45,163 bases of DNA from a virus (lineage: Duplodnaviria; Caudoviricetes). The notes beneath the pieces are model-generated. The model saw only the letters and a list, made by a program, of their open reading frames with translations. It was not told the DNA's origin and made no database searches. Positions within the stretch are counted from its first letter, which is position 1. Each line of letters opens with the position of its first letter. The stretch spans positions 1 to 45,163 of the IMG/VR virus record IMGVR_UViG_3300048902_000189. One strand, 5' to 3'. Positions 4,425 through 45,003 of the stretch are shown in pieces. Position numbers and translations under genes: made by a program.

Positions 4425-4627
4425 GGTACCCCATGGCCGACGCCGAGGCGAAAGGGACACACAGAGCCCGAGTAGCCGTTGACGCGCTGAGGGTGTGCGA
4501 GCCGGGAAGGCGGCGCAGAACAGGCGCGTTCGCCTATCGCTGGGAGCGGGAGAAGTTCGGCCTCCGCTCTACCCGGCACTTCAGGGCGCGTCGCTCTCCG
4601 GGGACGACGCGGAAGGAGGGGGAGTGA
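4421..4627 (+). CDS. Hypothetical protein
   Basis: GTGA overlaps at both ends. Confidence 0.4.
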   Translation: MRYPMADAEAKGTHRARVAVDALRVCEPGRRRRTGAFAYRWEREKFGLRSTRHFRARRSPGTTRKEGE

Positions 4628-5277
4628 GGGTGCTCGATCTCTTCTGCGGCCTAGGCGGCTGGGGTCGGGCTTTTCGAGAGCGTGGGCACGACGTGGTCGG
4701 CGTTGACCTGGACCCGCGCTTCGGGGCCGAGATCACAGCCGACGTAATGACGCTAGACGCCGCGAGCCTGGGGAGATTCGATGTGGTTCTGTCATCGCCG
4801 CCCTGCGAAGCCTTCTCCGTCGCCAGCATCGGGCACCACTGGACTGGCGGACGGTGCGCCTACATTCCCAAGACCGACCACGCCCGGAACAGCATCGCGC
4901 TTGTGAAGCATACGCTCGATTTGATTCACGGCATCGCGCCGCAGTTCTGGGTGCTTGAGAACCCTCGCGGCGTGCTGCGTAAGCTAGGGCTGCTGGATGA
5001 GTTCGAACGCATTACGGTCACATTCTGCTCCTACGGCGAGACGCGCATGAAGCCAACTGACCTATGGGGCGGGTTCCCAGACTCCTGGCGGCCGAAACCA
5101 AAATGCAAGAATGGAGCGACATGCCATGAGCGCGCTCCTCGAGGCGCACGCACGGGCACGCAGGGATTGAAGAACGCCGCCGCGAGGGCGGAGATTCCCA
5201 CGGCCCTGGCGTTGTCGATCTGTGTCGCCGCCGAGCGCGACTCCCGCACCCCGCGAGAAAGGAGACTGACGCCGTGA
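4624..5277 (+). CDS. Short phage-type DNA (cytosine-5) methyltransferase
   Basis: Motif I VLDLFCGLGG, motif IV SPPC, motif VI ENP. Confidence 0.85.
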   Translation: MRVLDLFCGLGGWGRAFRERGHDVVGVDLDPRFGAEITADVMTLDAASLGRFDVVLSSPPCEAFSVASIGHHWTGGRCAYIPKTDHARNSIALVKHTLDLIHGIAPQFWVLENPRGVLRKLGLLDEFERITVTFCSYGETRMKPTDLWGGFPDSWRPKPKCKNGATCHERAPRGARTGTQGLKNAAARAEIPTALALSICVAAERDSRTPRERRLTP

Positions 5278-6557: not shown

Positions 6558-6817
6558 CCTCCCCACTCTCGCGGCTCAAGCAGGCGGCGGACGCGCAGAG
6601 CGACGGCTCATTCTTTGAGGGCGACAAGGAGTGGCACGCCCGCGTCGCCAAGTCCGACCTCCGGGCTGCGCTCGCTGCCGTAGAGGCGCTGCGCGACACG
6701 GCAACCGACATGCAGTGGGCCGAGGACGACGACTACAACGCGCCCGGGCTCGACGTGCTCAAGCTGGCGAAGGACAAGGCAACCGTCGCGCTCGCCGCGC
6801 TCGATAGGGAGGGGTGA
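6554..6817 (+). CDS. Hypothetical protein
   Basis: ATGA overlap. Confidence 0.6.
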   Translation: MTSPLSRLKQAADAQSDGSFFEGDKEWHARVAKSDLRAALAAVEALRDTATDMQWAEDDDYNAPGLDVLKLAKDKATVALAALDREG

Positions 6818-6821
6818 TCCG

Positions 6822-7292
6822 ATGGGTCCGTTCGTGACGATCACCGCGGAGGCCGTGGCCCGGTCCAAGCGCGACGCCGCGTGGCACGTGGCGCGGGCGA
6901 AGCGCAAGAAGTGGAACGGCGTGGGCTACGACGGTCCGAACCGCGGGCGCGACAACTTCGGCGGCTACTGCGCCGAGGAAGCCGTGGCGGCGCTGATGGG
7001 GATCGCGTTCAAGCGCGACCTGAACGGGTTCCACAAGGCGGACGTCGGCCCCTGGTCGGTCCGCTTCGGCACCGTCCGCGGCTACGGCCTCGTGATCCAC
7101 GACCGGGACGGCCCCCAGCCCTACGTCTTGGTGACGCCCGGGCACCTCGAGCGGGAGTTTGAGATCGTCGGCTGGCTGCGGCGCGCCGAGGCGCTGGACC
7201 TTCAGCGCGCCGGCATCGGGCGCCAGCTCCAGGGCACGACGCACCCGTGGCTGATCCCGCCGGAGTACCTGCGGCCGTGGGGGGCGAAGTGA
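6822..7292 (+). CDS. Hypothetical phage protein, possibly PD-(D/E)XK nuclease-like
   Basis: GxxAExAVA...KADV...YVLV...FEIVGW pattern; strong SD. Confidence 0.55.
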   Translation: MGPFVTITAEAVARSKRDAAWHVARAKRKKWNGVGYDGPNRGRDNFGGYCAEEAVAALMGIAFKRDLNGFHKADVGPWSVRFGTVRGYGLVIHDRDGPQPYVLVTPGHLEREFEIVGWLRRAEALDLQRAGIGRQLQGTTHPWLIPPEYLRPWGAK

Positions 7293-8419
7293 GGTTCGGC
7301 TCCCTGTTCGCTGGCGTCGGCGGCTTCGACCTCGGGTTCGAGCGCGCGGGCCTCGAGTGCGCGTGGCAGGTGGAGATTGAGCCGGCGTGCGGCGCGGTGC
7401 TCAAGCGACACTGGCCGGACGTGCAGCTGCACGCGGACGTGCGGCAGGTCGGGCGGTACAATCTGGCGCCGGTTGACGTGGTGTGCGGCGGGTTCCCGTG
7501 CCAGGACTTGAGCGTTGCCGGCGCGCGCGCAGGGCTGGCGGGCGAGCGGTCCGGGCTGTTCTACGAAATGGCGAGGATCGTCGATGAGCTCCGACCTCTT
7601 TGGGTGGTCTGGGAGAACGTCCCAGGGCTGTTCACTAGCAACGGTGGCCGAGACTTTGCGGCGGTCCTCTCAGAGCTGGACCGCATCGGGTACGGTGGAG
7701 CGTGGACGGTGCTCGACGCTCGATACTTCGGACTGGCCCAGCGACGCCGCCGCATTTTCGGAGTGTTCACTCGCCTCGGTGCTGCTGCCGATCGCGCCGC
7801 CGAGGTACTCGCTCTCTCCGCGCGCGTGCGCGGGTATCCTCCGCCGCGCAGCGAAGCGCGGGCGGCTGTTGCCTCCCCACTTGGCGGAGGTTCTGGCGAT
7901 CGTGGCCGGCGAGACAACCTCGACAGCTCCGGGGCCTTCGTCGCGCTCGACACCGGGAGCGGCGGACCCGACGACAACGACGCCCAGGCCGGCCGGTTGC
8001 TCGCCAATCCCGTGAGCGCGAACGAGGGCCGCACGTACACGCATGAGGGCGCCGGCAACTTCCGCCTGCGGAACGTCGTGCCCGAGGTGGCGTGGGCGCT
8101 CCAGGAGCGCGACGCGAAGGGCGCCGACAGCGACACGAAGGACGGCCACCTAATCCCGTTCGACGAGCGGCAGGTGACGCACCCCGAGAACCGTTCGCGG
8201 TGCGAGCCAGGGGCGCCGTGTCACACGCTCCACGAGCTGCCGCCGTCGCTGGCATCGCGCCGCGGTGTGCGGCGCCTGACCCCGCTCGAGTGCGAGCGGC
8301 TCCAGGGCTTCCCCGACGGCTGGACCGAGGGCCACGCGGACGCGCCGCGCTACCGCATGATGGGCAACGCCGTGCCGCCGCCGGTCGCGCGGTGGATTGG
8401 CTCGAGGCTGCCCCGGTGA
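7289..8419 (+). CDS. DNA (cytosine-5) methyltransferase, alpha polypeptide
   Basis: FGSLFAGVGG (I), GGFPCQDLS (IV), ENVPG (VI), QRRRRIF (VIII), RRLTPLECERLQGFPD and RYRMMGNAV (C-terminal motifs). Confidence 0.93.
   Translation: MRFGSLFAGVGGFDLGFERAGLECAWQVEIEPACGAVLKRHWPDVQLHADVRQVGRYNLAPVDVVCGGFPCQDLSVAGARAGLAGERSGLFYEMARIVDELRPLWVVWENVPGLFTSNGGRDFAAVLSELDRIGYGGAWTVLDARYFGLAQRRRRIFGVFTRLGAAADRAAEVLALSARVRGYPPPRSEARAAVASPLGGGSGDRGRRDNLDSSGAFVALDTGSGGPDDNDAQAGRLLANPVSANEGRTYTHEGAGNFRLRNVVPEVAWALQERDAKGADSDTKDGHLIPFDERQVTHPENRSRCEPGAPCHTLHELPPSLASRRGVRRLTPLECERLQGFPDGWTEGHADAPRYRMMGNAVPPPVARWIGSRLPR
7584..8015 (+). CDS. Nested alternative-frame ORF: M.EcoHK31I-type methyltransferase beta subunit-like protein
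   Basis: GAGGA RBS then ATG 7584 in the +1 frame; SLASVL...PPRYSLSPRACAGILRRAAKRGRLLPPHL resembles the beta polypeptide of split C5-MTases. Confidence 0.7.
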   Translation: MSSDLFGWSGRTSQGCSLATVAETLRRSSQSWTASGTVERGRCSTLDTSDWPSDAAAFSECSLASVLLPIAPPRYSLSPRACAGILRRAAKRGRLLPPHLAEVLAIVAGETTSTAPGPSSRSTPGAADPTTTTPRPAGCSPIP

Positions 8420-10022: not shown

Positions 10023-10059
10023 CGGATTACCCCCGAGGGTCACGGCGCGGGATTGCGCC

Positions 10060-10085
10060 TAACACAATAGTAACACACGTGTCAA
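10060..10085 (-). promoter_or_regulatory. AT-rich promoter-like island (TTGACA and an extended -10-like TGtTACTAT) upstream of gene 10022
   Basis: Rare AT-rich patch in a high-GC genome; -35/-10 spacing is non-canonical. Confidence 0.35.
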
Positions 10086-10127
10086 GGGGCGAGCGAAACC
10101 CACGCCAACGGAGTATTAAAGGCGGGA

Positions 10128-10905: not shown

Positions 10906-11015
10906 GGCGTTACCCTCGCGGTGAGGTAGGGGAGCAGCGTGCAGACCTGCACGCCGGCGGCGATGGCCGCCGCCATGGCGATAGCGGCGGCGGCCCAGAG
11001 CAGATTGCGCCTCAC
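10902..11015 (-). CDS. 37-aa hydrophobic peptide (MRRNLLWAAAAIAMAAAIAAGVQVCTLLPYLTARVTP)
   Basis: GTGA and ATGA overlaps with both neighbours. Confidence 0.5.
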   Translation of the reverse strand: MRRNLLWAAAAIAMAAAIAAGVQVCTLLPYLTARVTP

Positions 11016-11461
11016 GAGAGCGGCACCTGGGCGTCAGCCTTCGCGACGGCCACGCCCCACGGATCGCCGCAGTCTTGGAGGTTCTGCGCCTTGGTGAGCC
11101 ACGCCGCCTCGCGCGCGGTGACGGTCGGGCCGCTGTGGCCCTGGCGCGGTGTGCTGGCCTCCTCGTGCGGGATGTCGAGGCAGACGGCGAACTTCACGGA
11201 GTCGGGGAGCTCACCCTCTGCGTCGTCCAGCTGGAACGGGGCGGCGCCCAGCGCGAGCGCGGCGCTGCCGACGATGCAGCCGCAACCGTCGCCGGTCGCC
11301 TTGTCGCGCCCGTTGAGGTACGAGCACGAGAGTTGCCCATCGGGCGCGAGGTAGACGCGCTGCGGGTGCGCCTCCGCCTGGGCGCGGACGGCCGCGACCA
11401 GCGCGGCGTAGGTGATCTTGGCAACGATGCGAGCCACGTCGGCATCGGACACGCGGCTCAT
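11012..11461 (-). CDS. Hypothetical protein (CSY...CGCIVG motif)
   Basis: ATGA overlap. Confidence 0.7.
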   Translation of the reverse strand: MSRVSDADVARIVAKITYAALVAAVRAQAEAHPQRVYLAPDGQLSCSYLNGRDKATGDGCGCIVGSAALALGAAPFQLDDAEGELPDSVKFAVCLDIPHEEASTPRQGHSGPTVTAREAAWLTKAQNLQDCGDPWGVAVAKADAQVPLS

Positions 11462-12199: not shown

Positions 12200-12564
12200 G
12201 ACGCGAACCCCTTGGCCTTGGCGTAGTCCCATGCCGCGTTCCACAGCGCCGCGTCGCCGTCGCTGTCCGGGCGCGGGTCGCGCGTCGTGACCTCGGCGAA
12301 TGCCTCGGCCATGACCTCGTTAGCGTCGAGGTGGTCGTGCGTCGCGCACGTGTTGTCGGCGCGCCGGGCGTTCTCGGCGTCGATGGCCGCGAGCACCTCA
12401 GGCGCAAGCTCCACGGCCATGCGGCGGCGGAATGCATCGCCGATGGCGATGGCCGTGACGCGCGACCACGCGCGCACGGCGTTGGACATGAGCGCGCGGT
12501 GGGCGGGCGGCGTCTGAGGATCGGTCATCAACTCGCTGACTTTTCGTCCGGCGTAGCGGGTCAC
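12196..12564 (-). CDS. Hypothetical phage protein (CATHDHLDANEVM...LWNAAW motif)
   Basis: GTGA overlap; conserved-looking motif. Confidence 0.7.
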   Translation of the reverse strand: MTRYAGRKVSELMTDPQTPPAHRALMSNAVRAWSRVTAIAIGDAFRRRMAVELAPEVLAAIDAENARRADNTCATHDHLDANEVMAEAFAEVTTRDPRPDSDGDAALWNAAWDYAKAKGFAS

Positions 12565-13199
12565 AGCAGGCCCCCTTGGGTTGGGGTGAGAGACAGGGCC
12601 AGTAGCAGGGACAGGGCGTAGGGCACGCGGCTCCGGTCGCGGGCGCCGTCGATGCCTTGCGTGCCGGTGCGCGCGCCACGCGGCGCGGCCTCGTGGCACG
12701 GGTCGCCAGCGGAGCACGGCGGCGGCAGCAGCAGGCCGGGCGGGAACGCGCCCCACAGGTCGGTCGGCTTCATGCGCGTATCGCCGAGGCGGCAGTACGT
12801 GACCGTGCGCCGCTCAAGGTGCGCGACGCACGGCCGGGTGCGGAGCATCCCGCGGGGGTTCTCCATCACCCAATAGGGCGCGCCGCTCGCCGCGACGAGC
12901 GCGAGCGCCGCGAGCACGAGCCGCTCGCCGTGGGCGGCCGCCTCAGACTTCGGCGAGCCGTCCGGCGCCCAGTGGCGGGACAGGGACGCGACCGAGAACG
13001 CGGTGCACGGCGGGGATGCCCAGACGAAGCCGTACGGGCCGCGGGCGAGCACCTCGTGCTGCACCTCGGGGTCGAGCACGGACCCCGTGATGGTCGCGCC
13101 CGCTTCGGCGAGCACGTCCACCGTGACCACCTCGTGACCGAGGCGCCGAAACGCCTCGGTCGACGAGCCGGTGCCGCTGAACAGGTCGAGCACCTTCAC
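12561..13199 (-). CDS. Short phage-type DNA (cytosine-5) methyltransferase, paralogue of 4624..5277
   Basis: VLDLFSGTG, WASPPC, ENPRG, TRMKPTDLWG, CHE.APRGARTGTQG. Confidence 0.85.
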   Translation of the reverse strand: MKVLDLFSGTGSSTEAFRRLGHEVVTVDVLAEAGATITGSVLDPEVQHEVLARGPYGFVWASPPCTAFSVASLSRHWAPDGSPKSEAAAHGERLVLAALALVAASGAPYWVMENPRGMLRTRPCVAHLERRTVTYCRLGDTRMKPTDLWGAFPPGLLLPPPCSAGDPCHEAAPRGARTGTQGIDGARDRSRVPYALSLLLALSLTPTQGGLL

Positions 13200-13372: not shown

Positions 13373-14283
13373 CGGTTTACCCTCCCGATGACGCCCGCTC
13401 ATGTGTGCCGCGAGCGCCAGCCGAGCGGGCCAGACCTGCGCTGCGGATATGGAAGCCACCGAGCAGGATAGCCCACTTCGTAGCCCGCACAAGGGCCACT
13501 TCTCGTTTTTTTCTCGGTACCACTCTGTCAACCTAAATCGGCGGCAGGGCCACCGCGAGGCCGGCCAGCGGCCTCCGCCAGAACGAGCGCCGCGGCAGGC
13601 CCCCGCCAGCGGCAGCGCCGTGCGACACTCGCGGCCTCCCCCTCGCGCGCGCCCGGCTGGTGGTTCCCGCCTCGCCGACCGCCCCAGCCCCCGAGCCAGC
13701 CGACCACGCGCGAACACACGAGCGCCCCGCCATCCGCCCCACGGCCCGACCCCCCGCCACCTGCGGAACCGCGCAGCGAGCGGGCGCGGCATCGACCCGC
13801 GCGACCGCCTGGGCACGCGCGATCGGGAACCGCGAGCGGGCGCACACGCGAGGCGATGCCGCCGAGGGGCCGGGGGCCGGAGCGTGCAGCCTCACCGCAC
13901 GGGCCGGGCTCCGGGACCGAGCGCCCCCCGCGCGAGGATGCGCGCTCGAGGGCACGCGCCGGCGCGCGAAGGCGTCGCCACCTGACGGGTCCCGAGCGAG
14001 GGCCCCCGGTCCCGAGCGGGTGATGATGCTCGATACGCGCATGGCAAGGGGACGGGGAGGGGAGTAGGGTGCGGGGGTCGCGGTGAACGCATGCTGGCAG
14101 AAGGCCCGAGCCACCGCGGCGAGGTAGGGCGCTGAACCCGTGCACGAGAGGGGCGGGGAGGCGCTGGGGGTGGCCCCGGGGCGAGACCGTGGCGGCTGGT
14201 AGCTGGGCCTGGACCGGGCGTGGCGGGGGAGCCTCGGGGCCGAGTAGTGGACGAGCGGGCGTTACCGTGACACCATGTAAAAC

Positions 14284-41507: not shown

Positions 41508-41837
41508 TTGGACGCCGAGACCGTTGACGCAGTGGCGCGCCGCATCCGCCTCTGGATCGGCGCGGCGACTCTGCTCATCACCACCGCCGCCGTCGGCGGC
41601 ACGTGGACGGTGCAGCGGGCGACGCTGGGCGTCCGCACCGACCTCAACCTGATGCACGGGGAGATCGCCAGCCTCGCGGCCATCCAGGCGAGGCAGGCCG
41701 AGCGCGATTCCGCGCGCTTCGAGCGTGCCATGGTCGTGCTCAATCTCGCCGTCGGGGCCATCGTCGAGCCCGCCGGCAGCGAGGAGAAGCAAACCGCGAT
41801 CGCCGAGCTGCGGCGGCTGCGGCACTTCACCCCCTGA
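41508..41837 (+). CDS. Membrane protein in the lysis cassette
   Basis: AGGAGG then TTG; one TM plus coiled coil. Confidence 0.6.
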   Translation: MDAETVDAVARRIRLWIGAATLLITTAAVGGTWTVQRATLGVRTDLNLMHGEIASLAAIQARQAERDSARFERAMVVLNLAVGAIVEPAGSEEKQTAIAELRRLRHFTP

Positions 41838-41848
41838 ACGGAGGACCG

Positions 41849-42151
41849 ATGCATCTGGACTTCGCAACCCTGTGGACGCTGTTCCAGCCCGCCATCGTCG
41901 GCGCACTCGGCGGGTTCATCCTGCACGCGCTCCACACGCCGAAGGACCATGAGCGCGCGCAGCAGCTGGGCACGATCGCCGGGGACATCGCGGTGCTCGT
42001 GGTGGCGGAGGCCGGGGGCGCGCCGTGGGCGACGATGCTCAAGAGCGTCATCGACCAACTGAAGGCGTACAACCTCACCGCCAACACGGACGTGCTCGAC
42101 CAGGTGGCGCAGGCGGCGCTGATCCGGGCGGGGGCGAAGAAGCCCGTCTGA
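41849..42151 (+). CDS. Putative holin
   Basis: GGAGG RBS; N-terminal TM, basic C-terminus; follows the endolysin. Confidence 0.5.
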   Translation: MHLDFATLWTLFQPAIVGALGGFILHALHTPKDHERAQQLGTIAGDIAVLVVAEAGGAPWATMLKSVIDQLKAYNLTANTDVLDQVAQAALIRAGAKKPV

Positions 42152-42183
42152 AGCGGCACCACGAAAAGCGGTGGAAGTGGCCC

Positions 42184-42212
42184 TTGCTCACCGTGCGGGG
42201 CGGGTCCATAGT
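42184..42212 (+). promoter_or_regulatory. Sigma70-like promoter TTGCTC-N17-CATAGT driving the early/recombination operon
   Basis: Hexamers with a 17-nt spacer in the gap after the lysis genes. Confidence 0.55.
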
Positions 42213-42217
42213 GCCCT

Positions 42218-42314
42218 GTGCACGGGGGTAGCAGCGAGAACGGATGTGCTGGTGGAGTCGCAGGAGCATGGATTACCCCCGTGCATCGCGACGAAGCCGG
42301 CGCATCCGTTCTCG
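42218..42314 (+). ncRNA. Candidate antisense/leader RNA (P4 CI / P1 C4-like architecture)
   Basis: 19-bp stem 42235-42253/42296-42314; apical GGATTACCCCCGTGCAT complementary to 42219-42230, 44246-44258 and the - strand RBS at 10024-10035. Confidence 0.6.
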
Positions 42315-42330
42315 TCTTTCGGAGGCCACT

Positions 42331-42741
42331 GTGCGCTACGACGTGATGGCTGCAACCGCGGCCCTGATCGCCTTCGGGTTCTTCTGGGGGCGGCTGCACG
42401 GCCGCGTCAGTGAGCGCCGGAAGCTGCGCTTGGAGCGCGAGAAGTTCGAACTGGACAAGATGGACGCGCTCCGCATCATCAAGGCGAACGACCACGAGCA
42501 CATCGGCACCGTGATCCGCTGCACGCCGCACGAGCAGACGGAGGTCACGCCGTTCGGGCTCGACGGCAGCAAGACGCGGTTGGTGCCGGGGACGAACGTC
42601 CTGATGCGGTGCGAGAAGTGCGGCATCTTCTGGCTCAAGTGGTTCCCGGGCACGTGGACGCCGGACGACTTCGCGCGCACTAAGCCCGAGGACATGGACA
42701 AGGTGGTCCGTTCGCTGACCGAAGGGGGCAACACGCCATGA
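42331..42741 (+). CDS. Membrane-anchored zinc-ribbon-like protein
   Basis: GGAGG then GTG 42331; TM AATAALIAFGFFWG; CTPH...CEKC. Confidence 0.65.
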   Translation: MRYDVMAATAALIAFGFFWGRLHGRVSERRKLRLEREKFELDKMDALRIIKANDHEHIGTVIRCTPHEQTEVTPFGLDGSKTRLVPGTNVLMRCEKCGIFWLKWFPGTWTPDDFARTKPEDMDKVVRSLTEGGNTP

Positions 42742-44168
42742 GCACCGCACTCGCCGCACAGCCACAGGCGCCCATGTCGTTCCCGTCCGGGGCCGACTTC
42801 GACGCGATGCGTAACGCGGCCGCGATCATCTCGCGCTCTGGGCTCGTGCCCGAGGCGTTCCGCGGCAAGCCCGAGGACATCATGGTCGCGATCCTCACCG
42901 CGCGTGGCCTCGGCCTCGACCCGATGGTCGCGCTCCAGCGCGGCTACGTGGTCAAGGGCAAGTTCGACATCGAGGTCTCGGTGAAGCTGGGGCTCGTGCA
43001 GTCGCGCGTCCCTGACTACGACTACGAGGTCATCGAGTTGAACGACGAGCGGTGCGTGATCGAGGGCGGGCGCGCCGGCAAGCGGCGCGTGCGCTCGGAG
43101 TTCACGTACGCGCAGGCCGTCGCCGCTGGCCTCACGCAAGGGAAGTACGGGCCGACGGCGACGTGGCAGTTCTACCGTCAGGACATGCTCTTGAACCGCG
43201 CTCTCGGCCGTAACCTCAAGGCGACGTGCGCGGCGGCGCTCTACAACATGCCCGTCCGCCTGGACGAGCCGGACGAGGAGAGCGGAGCGGTCGTGGTGGA
43301 GGACGGGGCGGGCAACGCGGGTGCGGCCCCCGCCGCGCCTGTTCCCGTCCCCACCCAACCGCACGTGTTCCCCGACGGCACGAGCAACCCGCACGCGGTC
43401 CCAGTCGAGAAGGCCGTCCCGGTGGACTGGCGCGGGCCGCTGCTCGCGGCCTTCGCGACCTGCTACGGCATCGACGTGCCCGGCGAGAACGCGAAGGTCC
43501 GCAGCGCGTTCGTGAAGAAGCACGAGGAGAAGCTGGTGCTGGTCGCGAACGAGTTCTACAAGAGCCGCGGTGAGCAGCCGGTGACGAAGTGGATCGCGGT
43601 GGGGCCCATGGACTACGAGCACCTGACGCGGTGGCTCGAGGAGAAGAACGCGAAGCGCGCTGGGAAGGGGGCCGCTGCCAGCGGCGAGCCCGCACCCACG
43701 GAGGGCGGAACCCAGCGCGCCGCGTCGCCCGAGCCGAGCGTGTTCGACAACTGGGAGCCGGCCGCGGCGGAGCCTTCGTCCGCCGCGCTGGTGGCTCCTG
43801 GTGCGCCCGAGGATGGCGAGGTGCCTGTCAGTACGGAGATCGTGACCGGCTGGCAGGCCCTCGTCGCCGCGGGCCACGAGAACCTGACCACCATCCTGCT
43901 CGCGATGCGCCACGCGACGAAGAACGAGCGCGAGTTCGTGAAGGTGTCGGAGAAGTCCGGCAACTACTCGCTGATCGACGGCGACCTGCTCAAGACGTGT
44001 GGCTTCGTGGACGCCAACGGCGTCGTCGTGGCGCAGTGGCTCCCCAAGCTGCACGCTGGCTTCGTGTGGGACGGCGCGAGGTACAACGGTCCGAGCGAGG
44101 CGGTGTGGCCGATGGTCGTGCGCGCCGTCTACGAGGAGGCGCAGGTCCTGAAGGTCAACACGCAGTAA
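42738..44168 (+). CDS. RecT/Red-beta-like single-strand annealing protein with a long C-terminal extension
   Basis: SGLVPEAFRGKPED+MVA+..A..LGLDPM.ALQ..YVV.G, A..AGL, W..Y..DML..RA. Confidence 0.8.
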   Translation: MSTALAAQPQAPMSFPSGADFDAMRNAAAIISRSGLVPEAFRGKPEDIMVAILTARGLGLDPMVALQRGYVVKGKFDIEVSVKLGLVQSRVPDYDYEVIELNDERCVIEGGRAGKRRVRSEFTYAQAVAAGLTQGKYGPTATWQFYRQDMLLNRALGRNLKATCAAALYNMPVRLDEPDEESGAVVVEDGAGNAGAAPAAPVPVPTQPHVFPDGTSNPHAVPVEKAVPVDWRGPLLAAFATCYGIDVPGENAKVRSAFVKKHEEKLVLVANEFYKSRGEQPVTKWIAVGPMDYEHLTRWLEEKNAKRAGKGAAASGEPAPTEGGTQRAASPEPSVFDNWEPAAAEPSSAALVAPGAPEDGEVPVSTEIVTGWQALVAAGHENLTTILLAMRHATKNEREFVKVSEKSGNYSLIDGDLLKTCGFVDANGVVVAQWLPKLHAGFVWDGARYNGPSEAVWPMVVRAVYEEAQVLKVNTQ

Positions 44169-44174
44169 CGAGGT

Positions 44175-44239
44175 TCGGCGGCGGGCCATGCTCCGCTAGG
44201 TTGCCCGGGGGCGACTGCAAGGCGTGGCGCCGCCGCCGA
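44175..44239 (+). other. Long intergenic hairpin directly upstream of the targeted RBS
   Basis: tcggcggcgg/ccgccgccga, gccatgc/gcgtggc and gttgcc/ggcgac stems. Confidence 0.55.
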
Positions 44240-44262
44240 TTCAAAATGCACGGGGGTAGACG

Positions 44263-45003
44263 ATGAGCGATCTGGTGCAGGTGCAGGGCGGCATCCCGAA
44301 GTTGCTCGAGCCGGTACTCGGCTCCGAGCAGGTCAAGACAAGCGTCTCCATCGCGCGCACGGTGCTCGACGGGTTCAAGATCGAGAGCCGCGAGGACATG
44401 GAGCAGGCCGGGGACTCCGCGCGAATCATCAAGCGCGGGCTCCAGGCGGTCGCCGACGGACTGCGCGACGCCTTCGCCCCGGTGAAGGACCTCGAGCGCC
44501 AGGCGCGCGACCGCTGCCGGGCCGAGGCTACCGACCGGCTCGACGCCGCACTCCGACTGATCGACTCCGAGCGCACGCGGTGGAGCGCCGTGGAGCAGCG
44601 CCGGGCCCGCGAGGCGGCCATCGCCGAGCAGCAGGAGGCCGACCGCGCGGCGCAGGCCGCCACCGCGGCCCGCGAGTCCGGCGCACTCGCCGACGACGAG
44701 GAGGCCCCGCCGGCGGCCCAAGTCGTCGTCCACCAGCCGGAGCGCACGGTGCGCGGCGCGGTGGCGACCACGGCGCAGGTCCGCAAGGTCGAGGCCGTCG
44801 AGCTGCTCGACCCCGCCGCCGCGGCCGAGCAGTGGGGGCCCGAGGTCGTCACGCTCAACGCGCGGCTGGCGGCCGAGAAGTACGCGGCGAAGGTGAAGCT
44901 GGGGCTGCTCCTGCCGCCGCCTGACGGGGCCCAGAACCACGTCGTCGGCGGTGTGCGGTTCGTGACCAAGGTGACGTTCTCAGATCGCGCTAGGGGGCGG
45001 TGA
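44263..45003 (+). CDS. Hypothetical coiled-coil phage protein adjacent to the RecT-like gene
   Basis: GGGGGTA RBS; helical A/E/R-rich; ends GGVRFV. Confidence 0.75.
   Translation: MSDLVQVQGGIPKLLEPVLGSEQVKTSVSIARTVLDGFKIESREDMEQAGDSARIIKRGLQAVADGLRDAFAPVKDLERQARDRCRAEATDRLDAALRLIDSERTRWSAVEQRRAREAAIAEQQEADRAAQAATAARESGALADDEEAPPAAQVVVHQPERTVRGAVATTAQVRKVEAVELLDPAAAAEQWGPEVVTLNARLAAEKYAAKVKLGLLLPPPDGAQNHVVGGVRFVTKVTFSDRARGR

Follow-up and report, generated by a model that had tools for sequence, protein, structure and literature searches.

Upstream of its recT-like operon, the phage genome studied here carries a hairpin RNA belonging to a structured RNA family of three members with covarying self-complementarity. 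The family is previously uncatalogued in the sense that Rfam does not contain it; the supplements of RNA-motif surveys may list motifs outside Rfam. From the sequence comparisons, we put at roughly 55% the reading that this hairpin is a small antisense RNA derived from a predicted early leader, following the logic of P4 CI and C4 on a new scaffold. Its loop would likely bind, in trans, the 5' tag of new transcripts as well as gene-start sites, lowering early expression. The gene-start targets would probably be those of gene 44263 and of the leftward gene 10022.

The window (the whole stretch of DNA analysed, 45,163 nt) is a complete, circularly assembled phage genome of 45,036 bp with a G+C content of 69%, bases 1-127 recurring at the end. 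The sequencing runs listed as containing it are soil metagenomes, and no RNA run is among them. A 45,066-nt contig present in two runs, the possible source runs, shows no differences over 41900-44400, and a 151-nt contig from another study's run shows none over 42135-42284; the sequence of the hairpin region is therefore not an assembly artefact. Informative variants were absent in runs sharing a small fraction of the window's words.

Family scans of the 65 window ORFs identified a terminase, a P22-like portal, a major head protein, an SU10 adaptor, an M15 endolysin, three DNA methyltransferases, and a RecT-like protein. In agreement with the initial annotation, which saw no repressor, no integrase, repressor, or antirepressor family was found among these ORFs (30 small or early ones were scanned again), a weak negative given that about three quarters of them have no family. 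No tRNA or tmRNA was found, and the family scans of the complete 45-kb window recognised neither a DNA polymerase nor a primase, helicase, or replication initiator. Two of the methyltransferase genes are related and lie on opposite strands (4595-5277, + strand, and 12561-13199, - strand), with a 65-nt segment that is 83% alike; the third, a C5 methylase, is located at 7289-8419. Gene starts in the window are predictions from a codon-usage script.

The hairpin element sits in a gap of 179 nt that separates the last lysis-region gene from a rightward operon, which consists of a 136-aa gene, the recT-like gene, and a 246-aa gene and runs on across the origin. The features of this locus are:

42175..42212, + strand: predicted early promoter, with a box AAGTGGCCCTTG leading into the -35 element TTGCTC, N17, and the -10 element CATAGT
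42219..42231, + strand: 5' tag (seqA-like), complement of the hairpin apex; first in the genome-wide duplex ranking, -26.9 kcal/mol
42235..42314, + strand: hairpin RNA of 80 nt, with a 19-bp basal stem, a GGA/GAA internal loop, a UCG/CGA stem, and a variable apex
42270..42286, + strand: antisense arm (seqB-like), GGATTACCCCCGTGCAT, with the exposed loop AUUACCC at 42272-42278
42315..42325, + strand: short U-rich stretch TCTTTC, followed by GGAGG, the first gene's RBS; the layout is found in three phages
42331..42741, + strand: first operon gene, 136 aa, with no family and no tblastn match in the relatives
42738..44168, + strand: gene of the RecT-like ssDNA-annealing protein, 476 aa (PHROG 4171, E 7e-15), the anchor for finding relatives
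44246..44259, + strand: candidate downstream target (seqC-like), RBS of gene 44263; 14 bp including one G-U, second in the ranking, -26.6 kcal/mol
44263..45003, + strand: gene after recT-like, 246 aa, common to all three phages; weak match to a PHROG 'exonuclease', with Gam/Gp157-like leads falling below the bar for naming

The basal stem pairs 42235-42253 with 42296-42314 and comprises 19 bp, three of them G-U. The fold of 42235-42314 has an energy of -56.6 kcal/mol (z -10.1), which 0 of 200 shuffles reach, and its internal loop is 4x4 with the conserved GGA/GAA. All coordinates of the initial annotation are correct for the promoter (42184-42212), the tag, the stem, the arm, and the perfect complements. 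It took all 17 nt of the arm to be displayed; the arm does lie at the hairpin tip, but only AUUACCC (7 nt) is unpaired in the predicted fold, and the rest forms a weak upper stem that must open for pairing. A leader peptide starting at ATG 42244 was considered and rejected (15 nt from the G-run, not conserved).

A search with the RecT-like protein returned 15 other proteins, 12 of them with 34-52% identity over at least half the length, and profile searches gave 11 viral and 5 metagenome recT-like loci. Full-length relatives are found at two of these 16 loci, L001 in genome G001 (50%) and L002 in genome G002 (35%); the relatives' sequences are fragments of 72% and 88%. About 10 further RecT-like relatives (35-52%) are known as proteins only and lie outside the hairpin comparison; one of them goes with a protein that matches the gene 44263 product at 67%. 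Both full-length relatives carry the hairpin at the same position, before the recT-like operon. The geometry CGAG-N14-TGGA(G/T)TCG-apex-CGA(C/T)GAAG-N14-CTCG is fixed in all three phages, which also share the order TTG..-N17-(C/T)AnnnT, 5' tag, hairpin, short T-run, and RBS. In the three-sequence alignment, 68 of 69 cells are paired and 7 of the 23 pairs show a double-sided change. The structure was taken from single-sequence folds. None of 500 shuffles is as good and slid controls give 0-2 double-sided pairs; only three sequences are compared, so the shuffle result is not a probability.

Wider searches returned no further member. Locus searches with the recT-like or the 44263 protein alone, or with the window's inverted-repeat pattern, gave nothing in viral contigs. 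Two viral motif scans yielded 13 and 98 loci, in which G001 and G002 are the only true hits (the other 11 of the first scan have 10-14 of 19 stem pairs, the rest of the second at most 13 of 19). A pattern scan of GTDB genomes gave 71 loci, none above 16 of 19 stem pairs and no prophage copy, and a covariance model recovered nothing beyond the three known members in 41 sources, among them 14 distant recT-like loci (L003-L016). Loci L127, L159, and L139 share GTGGA..GAAGC (the first two at 17-18 bits, the third below the cut-off), and none has the stem. The capsid-related genomes G003, G004, and G006 are without the hairpin, two of them being fragments that stop short of the region, and an A2 profile found no recT-like gene in five capsid-related records. 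As side observations, G002 encodes CsrA-like and RtcB-like proteins, pertaining to RNA-level regulation and repair, and G001 a terminase with an intein-like insert (L033:19337-19474, L032:2262-3341, L030:4045-6597).

An Rfam covariance scan of the whole window gave no match at E ≤ 5, C4/IsrK-type models included. The 251-nt windows of the three phages matched only eukaryotic miRNA, plant-virus element, and lncRNA models, far below the gathering score. That no bacterial or phage Rfam family matches bears out the earlier description of the system as apparently unrelated to CI and C4: the hairpin RNA is not a member of the C4/CI family. A literature search, which left most subscription journals outside, found no description of such an element.

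The tag at 42219-42230, TGCACGGGGGTA, is a perfect 12-nt complement of the hairpin arm. Tag and loop remain complementary in each of the three phages although the sequences differ: GCACGGGGGUA / UACCCCCGUGC in the window, GCAGGGGGUG / CACCCCCUGC in G001, and AAGGCGGGCU / AGCCCGCCUU in G002. The cognate duplexes have energies of -26.9, -24.7, and -24.0 kcal/mol, respectively, compared with -10.7 to -20.2 kcal/mol for the six non-cognate ones. Core-kept shuffles, in which the C-rich core (CCCCC in the window) is fixed, equal the tag energy in 1, 7, and 46 cases per 1000 (window, G001, G002). Covariation of loop and tag, proposed in the initial annotation as a check, is thus present in the three phages with cognate-only pairing. 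Tag/loop pairing is the best-supported interaction of the system, and in G002 it is unrelated to any SD sequence.

These data bear on the reading that a stable hairpin has acquired accidental matches through chance and shared SD usage. GGGGG is a common SD core (20 of 69 cores over the three phages), as this reading would have it. Against it, the stem covaries and so do tag and loop, also in G002, where neither is SD-like. For the tag the reading is largely refuted; individual RBS matches may still be accidental, but as an account of the whole we consider it extremely improbable.

It is also very improbable that the repeats act at the DNA level, as operators or a DNA hairpin bound by an unrecognised phage protein. 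The tag overlaps the predicted start site, the usual position of an operator, G002 encodes a protein with a weak HTH_26 match, and operators also covary within a phage. However, the sites are non-palindromic and share only an 8-nt core, their flanks match the loop copy in a sliding register, and one copy lies exactly at the hairpin tip. The departures are of the G-U type, and because of the G-U pairs folding favours the + strand over the - strand by 12-15 kcal/mol in the window, G001, and G002, which points to RNA.

When folding of the growing transcript is modelled, the helix of tag and arm is the minimum-energy state at ~64-83 nt in three of three phages and is displaced later by the basal stem. 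With the tag blocked in silico, nucleation of the upper stem occurs only 4-9 nt earlier, and the final hairpin is 24-34 kcal/mol more stable in this comparison. The equilibrium delay that a free tag imposes on the basal stem is small (4-9 nt), and any effect in cis must therefore be kinetic (kinetic trapping). A pseudoknot with the basal stem intact, which had been suggested as one option, is implausible: the linker between tag and stem measures 4-6 nt in two of the three phages and would be unable to span the finished stem, so that tag pairing should be transient in cis or take place in trans.

For the genome-wide duplex search, an 18-nt arm beginning with the conserved GAT was run against both strands, with the strand antisense to the hairpin itself excluded. 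The tag ranks first in the window, followed by the RBSs of genes 44263 and 10022. Positions 44246-44258 are a perfect 13-nt complement of the arm, and this site and the tag have 13 identical nucleotides in common, TGCACGGGGGTAG. In G001, the recT-like RBS ranks first (13 bp, one G-U) and the tag third; in G002, the tag ranks second and codons ~9-14 of the recT-like gene fourth, with unexplained sites at ranks 1 and 3. A top-4 site is located 0.3-2 kb downstream on the transcribed strand in all three phages. Its place varies from phage to phage: the sites are not orthologous, and the targeted gene differs.

The 17-mer with up to three mismatches has three matches in the window (itself, 10024, and 44246) against 0.09 expected. 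Complements of at least 12 nt occur once in 1,097,368 bases from 67 GC-rich control loci (0.04 per genome, 3 seen), an expectation that depends on this one control match. An additional 11-nt complement of the arm lies within a lysis-region gene, at 41651-41661. The comparison with chance that had been called for has a mixed outcome: the number of matches exceeds expectation, but 67 per 1000 core-kept shuffles reach the energy of the window's best RBS, which by itself is not significant (second-best, 11 per 1000). The corresponding values are 42 and 10 per 1000 in G001 and 884 and 636 per 1000 in G002. The loops of the window and G001 resemble the 3' tail of 16S rRNA, so some of the RBS matches are inflated or come free. 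RBS targeting as originally proposed is supported to the extent that the two window matches are moderately above chance, but their position is not conserved in the relatives.

The G001 arm pairs as well with the recT-like RBS of G002 (-26.4) as with its own (-26.5 kcal/mol) and is thus not specific; in cofolding it favours the window RBS 6822 (-18.7) over its own (-11.7). The site in G002 falls in the recT-like coding region, and no RBS stands out. In the window, the 9 nt at 44186-44194 (CCATGCTCC) are perfectly complementary to the apex's 5' side, GGAGCAUGG. This stretch shares the gap with the 44246 site, 52 nt upstream of it, and is possibly part of a split target; it is not seen in the relatives.

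A folding switch working only in cis would read these observations differently: the tag would pair with the apex of its own nascent transcript, serving to time folding, to prevent termination, or to protect the 5' end, and the RBS matches would be by-products of a C-rich, anti-SD-like loop. Tag/loop pairing is indeed the sole complementarity at an orthologous position in all three phages and the predicted fold of nascent intermediates, and the relatives offer a non-specific RBS match (G001) or none (G002). The window's two RBS sites, however, match opposite halves of the arm beyond the G-run. With energies of -26.6 and -25.5 kcal/mol, they beat all 89 non-cognate RBS windows of the relatives (best, -22.2) by at least 3 kcal/mol, and the recurrence of a top-4 downstream site on the transcribed strand likewise speaks against an action confined to cis. 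We regard such a switch as fairly unlikely.

The antisense reading extends to a second operon, the leftward gene cluster at 13372-9280, with the following features:

10023..10035, - strand: candidate trans target, RBS of gene 10022 (70 aa); 13 bp with one G-U, third in the ranking
10910..10915, - strand: GGGTAA, complementary to the loop seed and spaced 4 nt from the ATG of gene 10905; weaker, full duplex -19.4 kcal/mol
13377..13382, - strand: GGGTAA, complementary to the loop seed and spaced 4 nt from the ATG of gene 13372; weak, full duplex -15.7 kcal/mol
13465..13501, - strand: predicted leftward promoter, TTGTGC-N16-TATCCT, sharing the AAGTGGCCCTTG box

Positions 10024-10035 on the - strand are a perfect 12-nt complement of the arm. 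GGGTAA occurs at five sites in the window, the hairpin's own antisense strand left out, and three of the five are RBSs. All three read GGGTAA-N4-ATG and belong to genes 13372, 10905, and 10022, each the first after a gap; gene 13372 is the first gene after the leftward promoter. In G001 and G002, none of four GGGTAA sites is at an RBS, and SD-like hexamers are enriched at starts in general (AGGTGA, 3 of 19). The G003 fragment, without the hairpin region, has one GGGTAA-N4-ATG start, and its orthologue of gene 10022 has a different RBS. The initial annotation held that the RNA reaches a second operon; this is matched by the third-ranking duplex at the RBS of gene 10022, but it is seen in this one genome only. 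We consider targeting of the second operon plausible from the sequence, at somewhat below even odds.

Two further RBSs of the window, at 2641-2652 and 6813-6824, read GGTGATCCG-ATG; gene 10022 has the similar GGTAATCCG-ATG. The extended form does not occur in G001, G002, L034, or L035, and may represent weak G-U targets or extended SDs. The - strand at 10049-10090 is an AT-rich, promoter-like stretch with TTGACA and an extended-10-like TGTTACTAT at non-matching spacing. It also carries repeats of TGTGTTA and a palindrome, ACACGTGT, and may contain an operator.

The 12-nt box at 42175-42186 (+ strand) recurs exactly at 13490-13501 (- strand) and in the G001 leader, each time leading into the -35 of the predicted promoter. 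It is a possible UP element or activator site, and its sharing suggests that the leader and the leftward units are probably co-expressed. The promoter spacing TTG...-N17-(C/T)AnnnT is kept in G001 (TTGTAG/TAGATT) and G002 (TTGACA/TAGAGT). The promoter previously proposed at 42184-42212 gains from this conservation, but a sigma-70 consensus scan does not call it.

Downstream of the stem, a run of 3-4 T followed by a purine-rich RBS is present in all three phages. A terminator scan, which admits loops of 3-8 nt only, lists none after the hairpin. A second long hairpin is observed between the recT-like gene and the next gene (window 44169-44245, L001 ~11395-11460, L002 ~11364-11420), with z values of -3.6, -1.2, and -1.7. 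It is possibly a processing or termination signal; the window target RBS at 44246 lies just 3' of it.

These hairpins may recall early phage mRNAs of the T7 type, where the element would be an RNase III-type processing or stability signal and antisense activity secondary or absent. No loop/5'-tag complementarity is known in T7 RNase III signals. T7 R1.1 is described as a 60-nt stem with a 4/5-nt internal loop that is cut by RNase III (PMC6121014), likewise a long stem interrupted by an internal loop within an early phage transcript. Unlike R1.1, the window hairpin has a 4x4 internal loop with conserved GGA/GAA; its geometry is compatible with an R1.1-type stem of ~2 turns plus internal loop. 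The stem keeps its length and its internal loop despite changes in sequence, and the second long hairpin recurs after the recT-like gene in all three phages, as expected of a processing signal. This explanation nevertheless leaves the phage-specific tag/loop complementarity unaccounted for, and as the sole function we hold it to be improbable. RNase III-type processing is compatible with the antisense reading, as the step releasing the hairpin.

Among known antisense systems, the P4 CI RNA of ~79 nt comes close. Its own transcript contains sites complementary to it on either side, seqA upstream and seqC downstream (PMC4825925), and homology between IsrK and the P4 seqA element has been described (PMC3632133); the comparison with CI/C4 systems also drew on PMC5499578. 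The window RNA is likewise derived from an untranslated leader, has up- and downstream complementary sites, and is of similar size. The upstream site is present in three of three phages with covariation, and a downstream top-4 site in three of three at differing places. Unlike P4 CI, the window RNA is a single unbranched hairpin without an Rfam C4 or IsrK match, in place of an IsrK-like hairpin upstream it has a 12-nt tag at the predicted +1, and its downstream site is 0.3-2 kb away. The carrier, in contrast to the P4 satellite, is a 45-kb phage that has virion genes of its own and in which no integrase was found.

C4 controls the icd/antirepressor operon, and a 3' CCA is required for C4-type 5' processing. 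The C4 antisense RNA (Rfam RF01695; PMC2864571) of P1 and P7 is a structured RNA of ~77 nt whose loop occludes an RBS, and a few loop/target changes between P1 and P7 abolish cross-reaction (PMC5320573). According to the latter source, it folds into three stem-loops, presents two target loops (a' and b'), and owes its GGW 5' end to RNase P. The cognate-only tag/loop matrix resembles the lack of cross-reaction between P1 and P7 as described there. Complementarity of the C4 type, between loop and an RBS of the same operon, is present in the window, non-specific in G001, and located in a coding region in G002. Unlike C4, the RNA has one unbranched hairpin with one apical loop, its stem starts with CGAG and not GGW in all three phages, there is no 3' CCA, and no antirepressor family was found among the genes downstream of the hairpin in the window (PHROGs, Pfam, NCBIfam). 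S. aureus RNAIII and RsaE use a C-rich hairpin loop to pair with the SD sequences of several mRNAs; these are host trans-encoded sRNAs with no known self-targeted 5' tag.

In our model of the antisense RNA, the tag would pair in cis with the emerging apex arm early in infection, delaying the basal stem while the operon is read through. Either termination at the short U-tail or a double-strand nuclease would then free the finished hairpin, which would build up as a stable RNA. The accumulated RNA would nucleate via AUUACCC, open the weak upper stem, and cover the tag of new transcripts. With the tag covered, the nascent hairpin would fold at once and yield more short RNA, a self-reinforcing shut-off; the same RNA would cover the target RBSs and block translation. 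Differing loop/tag sequences would make the RNA of each phage self-specific, as in immunity groups. By analogy, a constant scaffold with diverged loop and tag is what immunity groups may look like (P1 versus P7, PMC5320573). Since no integrase was found and the GTDB scan showed no prophage copy, early-to-late timing may be the output just as well as superinfection immunity or dormancy. It is doubtful, though conceivable, that a single ~80-nt RNA replaces the protein repressor as master switch, amplifying itself by 5'-tag capture and silencing a two-strand regulon made up of 44263 and the three GGGTAA-N4-ATG leftward units, with a loop mimicking the anti-SD tail and defining immunity groups.

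RNA-only control of immunity or lysis has been described mainly for the C4/CI scaffold, in proteobacterial elements. If the antisense reading is true, an unrelated scaffold follows the same logic in phages where neither a repressor nor an integrase is recognisable, and the design would have evolved independently. This could explain how such phages time or silence their early genes. The hairpin is small and modular, with a constant stem, a swappable loop, and three natural orthogonal loop/tag pairs, and may be useful as an orthogonal riboregulator.
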